Positions 36,395-36,907 of a stretch of DNA of 44,264 nucleotides are shown here, one piece after another. How positions within the stretch are numbered: the stretch's first letter is position 1; each line of letters opens with the position of its first letter. The position numbers were made by a program, and so were the translations under genes. The stretch comes from Escherichia phage vB_EcoS_PS2: the sequence record PV637039.1, one strand, 5' to 3'. Below the pieces are notes generated by a model. It searched no databases, was not told where the DNA came from, and saw only the letters and a list, made by a program, of their open reading frames with translations.

Positions 36395-36907
36395 TTAGTC
36401 TTCCAGTTCGAAATAGGTTTCGACGATTTCTTTCAGGTCTTTGTGGAAGTCTTCGACGTCGTCGTCTTCCAGTTTAGCGATTGATTTGATCTCGAACGAT
36501 TCCAGCAGGTCGTCAAATTCGTCGTTCGCATCATCATCATCGCCGCCTGCGATAATCGCGGCATACTGTTTGATCTCGTCGCGCATCTCTGCCAGCGGAT
36601 CGGCGTCTTTCTTACCTTTGCCTTTCGCTGGCGCTTTTTTACCCTTCGCCGGTTTTTCGTCTTCGGCTTCATCCTCGTCGTCATCCTCTACGACTTCTTT
36701 TTTGGCCTTACCTTTCGCCGGTGCTTTTTTGGTTTTCGCCGGTGCTTCGTCTTCAGCGTCGTCATCTTCTACGACTTCTTTTTTCGCCTTAGATGGCTTT
36801 TTATCTTCCTGCTTACCAACGGCAGCGCCAACGGTTTCATAATGTTTAGCGATTGTTTCCAGTGCTACTACGCCGCGAGTAATCAGGTTTACGACTTGTT
36901 CAAACAT
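36395..36907 (-). CDS. highly charged repeat protein (170 aa)
   Basis: ATG at 36907 after GGAGA RBS; tandem KKEVVEDDD.EDE...KKAPAKGK repeats and an acidic C-terminus; the track N-terminal extension to 37135 is R-rich leader sequence. Confidence 0.55.
   Translation of the reverse strand: MFEQVVNLITRGVVALETIAKHYETVGAAVGKQEDKKPSKAKKEVVEDDDAEDEAPAKTKKAPAKGKAKKEVVEDDDEDEAEDEKPAKGKKAPAKGKGKKDADPLAEMRDEIKQYAAIIAGGDDDDANDEFDDLLESFEIKSIAKLEDDDVEDFHKDLKEIVETYFELED

Follow-up and report, generated by a model that had tools for sequence, protein, structure and literature searches.

A core acidic protein of Dhillonviruses with a variable charged linker, encoded behind what appears to be a new structured leader RNA

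Lambda Gam and T7 gp5.9, two RecBCD inhibitors that act as DNA mimics, are small, acidic, all-helical and non-enzymatic proteins, and their genes lie beside those of a phage exonuclease and an annealing protein. Here we analysed a gene of Escherichia phage vB_EcoS_PS2 (record PV637039.1; the whole stretch of 44,264 nucleotides (nt) is called the window) whose product shares these features and of which, by analogy, stoichiometric action would be expected and an oligomerising helix would be plausible. It differs from both inhibitors in that no sequence or fold similarity to them was detected and in its tripartite build, with a long and variable disordered linker. The gene occupies positions 36395-36907 on the minus strand, stop codon included, and its translation is a protein of 170 amino acids (aa) that belongs to family PHROG 3127. 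An earlier note on the window had described a minus-strand protein of this length with alternating charge blocks, which the open reading frame (ORF) and its composition bear out. The protein consists of three parts, an amphipathic N-terminal helix, a disordered polyampholyte linker and an acidic C-terminal domain of three helices, and its overall isoelectric point (pI) is 4.46.

The N-terminal helix (aa 2-28, 36824-36904, minus strand) was recognised from AlphaFold2 (AF2) models, alignments and a hydrophobic moment of about 0.5. Residues 1-30 are hydrophobic and amphipathic, R11, A15 and E17 are invariant in alignments with distant relatives, and the helix is modelled with a predicted local distance difference test (pLDDT) score of 50-60. 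The linker (aa 29-100, 36608-36823, minus strand) falls below a pLDDT of 50, and residues 31-100 contain 21 K/R and 21 D/E, segregated in blocks and giving a net charge of 0. The C-terminal domain (aa 101-170, 36398-36607, minus strand), delimited by AF2 and by homolog comparison, has a pI of 4.05 and a net charge of -21, a total taken over the 70 aa of a confidently predicted fold. Its helices (104-121, 125-137 and 148-166) reach pLDDT values of 83-95, and it is the only part of the model that is confidently folded; fold searches with it returned only generic three-helix-bundle matches. The disorder and structure predictions that had been proposed as a check thus separate a disordered linker from a folded C-domain, and the acidic C-terminus of the earlier note keeps its acidity, although it is predicted to be a folded domain and not a tail. 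A four-helix bundle, in which the N-helix would pack on the C-domain with the linker as a loop, found no support when AF2 was run on a 115-aa minimal homolog with a 42-sequence alignment, where the N-helix stayed at a pLDDT of about 50.

The comparison of homologs indicates which of these parts are under selection. Among 97 distinct Dhillon-type proteins, in which the linker was taken as the segment between conserved anchors, identity is 95% in the N-terminal 24 aa and 97% in the C-terminal 68 aa, whose length never varies, whereas the linker ranges from 23 to 87 aa in three size classes that correspond to 0, 1 and 2 acidic/basic units. The repeat-number variation anticipated for relatives is thus present. 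Net linker charge is centred on 0 to +1, three homologs have no acidic block at all, the shortest retain only a basic linker, and linkers of 23-32 aa without an acidic block occur in otherwise normal phage genomes. Because the ends are about 96% identical and the middle carries 0, 1 or 2 units, selection would act on the two ends, with the middle a flexible tether evolving by repeat slippage. To judge from these sequences, the charged repeats are a variable spacer and not the functional core. This natural variation amounts to an existing experiment on the effect of tether length within a disordered protein.

At the DNA level the repeats themselves are real (self-blastn, E 4e-17), with a period of 81-90 nt and not the 78 bp first given. 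One pair of 79 nt (36601-36679 and 36691-36769) is 75% identical at a spacing of 90, and a second pair of 42 nt (36669-36710 and 36750-36791) is 88% identical at a spacing of 81. This period corresponds to protein units of 27 and 30 aa, namely aa 40-66 (36790-36710) and aa 67-96 (36709-36620), both on the minus strand. The program TRF gave no report of 81-90-nt repeats in the gene, and no second copy of the DNA repeat was found elsewhere in the window.

The match to PHROG 3127, a family with no assigned function, covers the full length (E 6.7e-53, aa 1-170 against profile positions 1-178 of 178), and 42 of 43 diverse relatives fit the same profile. Sequence comparison with Pfam, NCBIfam, PADLOC and the Protein Data Bank gave no significant match, sequence and fold searches detected no catalytic or known-family signature, and no homology to a structural or enzymatic family, against which the earlier note had staked its proposal, came to light. 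The family is narrow: a search of 5.8 billion clusters gave 178 homologs, and 1.84 billion representatives yielded 64 clusters at 50% identity. All its members are phage-like, including those of Jerseyvirus, Kagunavirus, phiEap-2 and Edwardsiella phage eiAU. Family-wide alignments repeat the pattern of a conserved N-helix, a non-alignable charged middle and a conserved C-terminal stretch of about 68 aa. Some distant relatives (P0121, P0122 and P0132) carry two C-domains, so that this domain behaves as an independent module. The N-helix (MLEKxLxLLERFVVAHExIA) is also found joined by a charged linker to other, non-acidic C-terminal helical domains (P0173, P0175-P0179), and this recurrence suggests a reusable docking or oligomerisation module.

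The DNA of the window is that of a Dhillonvirus, an HK578/EP23-like virulent siphophage of E. coli; over 36000-37700 it shares 94% identity with Shigella phage EP23, and 175 phage records, nearly all of them Escherichia or Shigella phages, match this region. The counterpart in EP23 is EP23p44, annotated as 'hypothetical protein'. A tblastn search found the 170-aa protein in 154 phage records, with an identity of at least 90% in 152 of them, against 156 records that carry the primase-helicase at 80% identity or more and represent the Dhillonvirus set, so the gene is core in this genus. It heads a leftward block of about 12 kb for replication and recombination, in which it is followed by small ORFs, a PD-(D/E)XK exonuclease, a gp2.5/Enc34-type single-stranded DNA-binding (SSB) and annealing protein, DNA polymerase A (PolA), a helicase and a methyltransferase, and which is divergent from a helix-turn-helix (HTH) gene and the primase-helicase. 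Relatives whose identity is only 38-45% keep this position, before the exonuclease, the Enc34/gp2.5-type SSB and PolA and divergent from the HTH and primase-helicase genes, and this synteny extends to Jerseyvirus and Kagunavirus. In all genomes examined the gene lies within the replication/recombination block, distant from and opposite to the structural genes. The family comprises core genes of several hundred sequenced coliphages and Salmonella phages, many of them proposed for therapy, and the identity of its target would fill a gap, such as how small virulent siphophages handle RecBCD or organise replication.

We tentatively propose that the protein is a stoichiometric, non-enzymatic binder with a DNA-mimic-like acidic domain that serves the recombination/replication module, with RecBCD as a candidate target. 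Under this proposal the N-helix would oligomerise or dock the protein, the linker would be a flexible tether only, setting reach and valency, and the acidic C-domain would offer a nucleic-acid-mimicking surface for the stoichiometric block of a DNA-binding or DNA-end-processing protein. A DNA-mimic role, which the earlier note had raised for the protein as a whole, is thus possible for the invariant acidic C-domain. No sequence or fold homology to characterised DNA mimics (Ocr, ArdA, Gam, gp5.9, Arn and others) was detected. The leading candidate target would be the host RecBCD-class nuclease, and the protein may then be a functional analogue of lambda Gam or T7 gp5.9 in a phage that supplies exonuclease, annealing protein and polymerase itself; second in line would be a partner in the phage replisome. 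RecBCD takes first place because of the position, which is like that of lambda gam-bet-exo, because the annotation of EP23 contains no Gam- or Abc2-type gene, and because Dhillonviruses are robustly restricted by P2 OLD, a sensor that RecBCD inhibitors trigger (bioRxiv 10.64898/2026.07.10.737580). Two points call for caution here: OLD responds to replication intermediates too (same source), and the homolog in phage MB78 bears the name '13.88 kDa late protein'. We regard RecBCD as a lead drawn by analogy, and hold it with low confidence.

The same context would also suit a replisome or recombination hub, or a condensate scaffold, that gathers the primase-helicase, the exonuclease, the gp2.5-like SSB and PolA on phage DNA, an explanation we consider rather doubtful. 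The gene's strict cross-genus synteny with the replication module and its core status would fit such a role, as would the segregated charge blocks of a linker with a net charge near 0, and the Lys/Ala/Pro blocks, like the RGRP motifs of distant relatives, might make contact with DNA. The gp2.5-like SSB of the same phage has a similar acidic/basic repeat tail of variable length, and in this somewhat improbable scheme oligomerisation through the N-helix together with the blocky linker might act, for example, by coacervation with that similarly charged tail. T7 gp2.5-type SSB proteins share the logic of an acidic partner-binding part in a replication module, and the phage's own gp2.5-like SSB bears a tail of acidic/basic repeats comparable to the linker; the 170-aa protein, in contrast, has no oligonucleotide/oligosaccharide-binding fold, and its acidic part is a predicted folded helical domain. 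What counts against a hub is that some phage genomes, normal in other respects, encode homologs almost devoid of a linker, and the multivalent chemistry of the linker would therefore not be essential.

The KKAPAKGKAKK-type blocks of the linker resemble the repeats of H1, AlgP and Hc1, and in those proteins, as in AT-hook proteins, motifs of this kind likewise come from unstable tandem DNA repeats. A histone-like or nucleoid-associated protein, whose Lys/Ala/Pro blocks would contact DNA as H1, Hc1 or AT-hooks do, under modulation by the acidic parts, would gain from the basic linker that the shortest homologs keep and from the RGRP AT-hook-like motifs (KRGRPAK) in distant relatives. These motifs are confined to the linkers of distant relatives, however, and the window protein has none. 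Its basic blocks are neutralised by acidic ones, dispensable in number and variable in sequence, whereas the acidic C-domain is invariant, and with a linker of net charge close to 0 in a strongly acidic protein there is no net basic Lys/Ala/Pro or RGRP segment. The histone-like role suggested by the earlier note is thus unlikely.

Even less probable is the anti-restriction role raised at the same time, that of an Ocr/ArdA-like DNA mimic which would bind type I restriction enzymes or other defence nucleases just after injection. As with T7 gene 0.3, the logic would be that of a first gene behind a strong promoter and a long structured leader, encoding a very acidic protein with no enzymatic motifs. 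Yet the protein is not homologous to Ocr (gp0.3) or ArdA, and no known family of anti-phage defence or counter-defence showed similarity to it in searches including PADLOC-DB. Core status and synteny across genera are atypical of accessory anti-restriction genes, and Dhillonviruses are reported to show moderate to considerable sensitivity to restriction-modification systems (PMC11990801), which argues against an equivalent function. EP23 moreover has a separately annotated Lar-like restriction-alleviation gene, and the characterised Dhillonvirus anti-defence protein, anti-Tmn, has another fold; it is ORF35, with a beta-sheet C-terminus (PMC11846954), and we rejected the identification of the 170-aa gene with it on these grounds.

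A late or morphogenetic accessory protein, for instance an assembly chaperone, is the least credible explanation, since it follows a match in BFVD to the '13.88 kDa late protein [Salmonella phage MB78]' (E 8e-4), an annotation that was copied onto many Jerseyvirus records and whose basis could not be confirmed, whereas the gene sits in a replication/recombination block far from the structural genes and opposite to them. The name reportedly goes back to work on MB78 late-protein synthesis around 2000, and nothing usable on MB78 was found in the literature.

The second subject of this study is the leader that precedes the gene. Among described RNAs, its nearest counterparts are the HK022 put RNA and riboswitch aptamers, conserved structured RNAs that lie at or within a few nt of an early promoter start, in cis to early genes, and that combine a highly conserved core with covarying peripheral helices. 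The leader has the same layout, with several differences: put is about 70 nt long with two stem-loops, while the leader RNA has about 160 nt and seven helices, and it has no Rfam match and neither an expression platform nor a correlated terminator was found. It appears to be a new and well-supported class of structured RNA in virulent coliphages. Large, highly conserved structured RNAs with no assigned function are rare finds.

The leader is preceded by a sigma-70-type promoter-like site, TTGACT-17-TAATAT (37104-37132, minus strand), found by consensus scan, both hexamers of which are kept in the 18 Dhillonvirus loci that we aligned. This site sets the expected transcription start near 37097 and hence a leader of about 190 nt, so that both the leader length and the promoter-proximal place of the gene, first in the leftward block, hold as the earlier note had given them. 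Across the aligned loci about 148 nt of the leader are near-invariant where present, and four loci, L007, L009, L014 and L017, lack the block entirely. By blastn the block occurs in 171 phage records, among them partial, diverged matches from unrelated genera: in the Drexlerviridae, Warwickvirus JK16 and Changchunvirus PHB17, and in Sortsnevirus, sortkaff and IME279. In these four phages it is mainly intergenic and on the coding strand, and different small genes follow, their Shine-Dalgarno (SD) sequence and ATG 20-45 nt downstream; in PHB17 there is additional overlap with the 3' end annotated for an upstream methyltransferase gene. Further variants, from phage contigs of about 40-50 kb, came to light in pattern scans of IMG/VR, of metagenomes and of GTDB genomes, and the sole bacterial-labelled match was a contig of a metagenome-assembled genome with a sortkaff-like element. 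Copies lie at L028 (about 1478-1641), L029 (about 1476-1643) and L030 and L031 (about 1493-1655), and in L084, L096 and L101. In all, at least five lineages of virulent enterobacterial siphophages carry the RNA, namely Dhillonvirus, Warwickvirus, Changchunvirus, Sortsnevirus and metagenomic phages of about 40 kb.

The RNA itself comprises 160 nt (36937-37096, minus strand) and was defined from a covariance model and from a hand alignment, A5, of 22 distinct sequences anchored on invariant motifs. Its closing stem P1, GTCGAC (37096-37091 with 36942-36937, minus strand), starts at 37096, essentially at the predicted transcription start. The other helices are the P2 hairpin with an AGGA or GGA loop, the long-range P4 (GGRGY with GCY-A-CC), the P3 hairpin and a three-way arm of Pz, Py and Px. 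In A5, standard pairs fill 96.4% of cells, against 28-43% when the partners are slid by 1-3 columns, and both sides change in 27 of 44 pairs, against 3-8 in the slid controls. A covariation score of 0.536 compares with at most 0.082 in these controls, and the observed values were reached in 0 of 500 shuffles; A5 was built with the structure in mind, so that all these counts lean towards it, and its registers are fixed by the invariant anchors. The G-U pairs are strand-specific and several versions carry stop codons in all three frames, and for these reasons the leader would act as RNA rather than as DNA or protein.

A covariance model built from A5, R1, matched the window once, at 36929-37101 on the minus strand (172.9 bits, E 4.6e-43), and gave no second copy elsewhere in it. 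R1 likewise had no match in distant loci of the protein family or in the four element-less Dhillonviruses. The leader RNA and the 170-aa protein each occur without the other, which makes them independent modules. Folded as a single sequence, the leader showed no significant stability (z = +0.87). RNAalifold on a MAFFT alignment missed most helices and proposed a GGGGCC/GGCCACC pairing, and we rejected that pairing for P3 and P4, which are preferred because the variants L084 and L101 show compensatory changes. No Rfam 15 covariance model matched at E <= 1, either in the window leader or in four other carrier phages, and the literature yielded nothing usable on the leader sequence or on Dhillonvirus non-coding RNAs. 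ARAGORN detected no tRNA or tmRNA in the leader, and a tRNA-like acceptor end (ACCA after P1), which we had considered, was dropped as it is not conserved across types.

Before the true ATG the frame stays open for 76 codons through the leader RNA (36908-37135, minus strand), and because it does so in Dhillonvirus leaders, over-long ORFs of 231-246 aa are called in some records, and proteins of 207-239 aa are annotated in several public ones (for example P0011, P0052, P0062, P0074 and P0080). We rejected this in-frame extension as coding, since its substitutions are mostly non-synonymous. The further grounds are the absence of the 148-nt block from four phages, the stops in all three frames of homologous elements in other phages and the RNA-type covariation, strand-specific G-U pairs included.

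As to what the leader does, we see roughly even prospects that it represents a previously undescribed class which serves as a portable cassette before unrelated early genes and recognises a ligand or a host machine, as a riboswitch, a ribozyme or a host-factor decoy. In relation to the 170-aa gene, it would be a separate structured module at the 5' end of the message. A 52-nt core is conserved save for about 10 positions and the helices covary freely, and this combination points to recognition, the partner being a ligand or a conserved part of the host machinery such as CsrA, an RNase, the ribosome or RNA polymerase. For CsrA, recognition could go through the conserved loop AGGA of the hairpin and the unpaired GGAGA junction, which would resemble its sites. 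Like a riboswitch, the RNA unites an aptamer-like core with covarying helices; as regards an expression platform, no conserved alternative pairing with the SD was seen, and the distance to the SD varies between 15 and 40 nt. It is promoter-proximal in the window, as put-type antiterminator RNAs would be. No correlation that would link it to antitermination was seen, the terminator downstream of the gene being equally conserved in the four Dhillonvirus loci without the RNA; in JK16 and sortkaff there is no terminator within 1.4 kb. If the cassette reading is true, the acidic protein would be one of several cargo genes under leader-RNA control. Since the RNA opens a message and its phages are virulent on a model host, experiments on it can be made directly in E. 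coli, with the natural element-less phages as controls.

The remaining expression signals of the 170-aa gene are also conserved. An SD sequence, GGAG (36918-36915), precedes the ATG (36907-36905; together 36905-36918, minus strand) and both are kept in 18 of 18 loci, including those without leader RNA. Downstream lies an intrinsic-terminator-like element (36227-36256, minus strand), a hairpin GGCCCGC-AGATTA-GCGGGCC (36256-36237) followed by a T-run, which is again present in 18 of 18 Dhillonvirus loci whether or not they have the leader RNA. Since the gene sits between a strong promoter and this hairpin, its protein is probably made in quantity, and we infer that it is expressed early. In L001-L020 the stem of the hairpin is constant and the loop is AGATTA or TAATCT in different phages; the two are mutual reverse complements, and the hairpin looks as if it were inverted in some phages. 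Between the 170-aa gene and the terminator, an acidic ORF of 41 aa (36265-36390, minus strand) belongs to PHROG 15754, again with no assigned function. To judge from gene-terminator distances, it is found in some Dhillonviruses and not in others, where the terminator follows directly 3' of the 170-aa gene, and it is a variable accessory gene in its behaviour.

Further along the leftward block, the C-terminus of the gp2.5/Enc34-type SSB (33226-33480, minus strand) is an alternating acidic/basic tail (...DDDEDESPRKSKKSKRRDDDDEDDKPRKSKKSKRRDDDEDDEDEKPRKRRKPRDDEDEDEDEDDDEDEAPRKRRRR) encoded by 54-nt tandem repeats at 33332-33456. Tail length differs between phages, and the gene measures 609, 675 and 786 nt in three relatives. 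This tail is the same sort of repeat-driven polyampholyte as the linker of the 170-aa protein.

On the other side of the promoter region, the divergent HTH protein of 109 aa (37307-37636, plus strand) is of the HTH_23 / Sigma70_r4_2 type, and its labels across records include transposase, resolvase and 'DNA recombination nuclease inhibitor gamma'. Our analysis supports the HTH domain alone, and for this reason the protein is more likely a regulator of the divergent promoter region than what these names say. Between the promoter of the 170-aa gene and this HTH gene lies a candidate small RNA unit (37143-37233, minus strand) with a predicted transcript of about 56 nt (37198-37143). Its promoter-like site, TTGAAA-17-AATAAT (37233-37205), matches at 10 of 12 positions with a TG and is the best promoter match in the region, and its terminator is a hairpin followed by T8 (37176-37143, z -3.0). 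The unit is kept in 18 loci, with compensatory stem changes in L017. The body of this small RNA is C/U-rich (CUCCCGUCUCAUUGUCUCUUAUUGG) and, by eye, pairing of its UUGUCUCU with GGAGACAG, in the SD region of the divergent HTH gene, looks possible.

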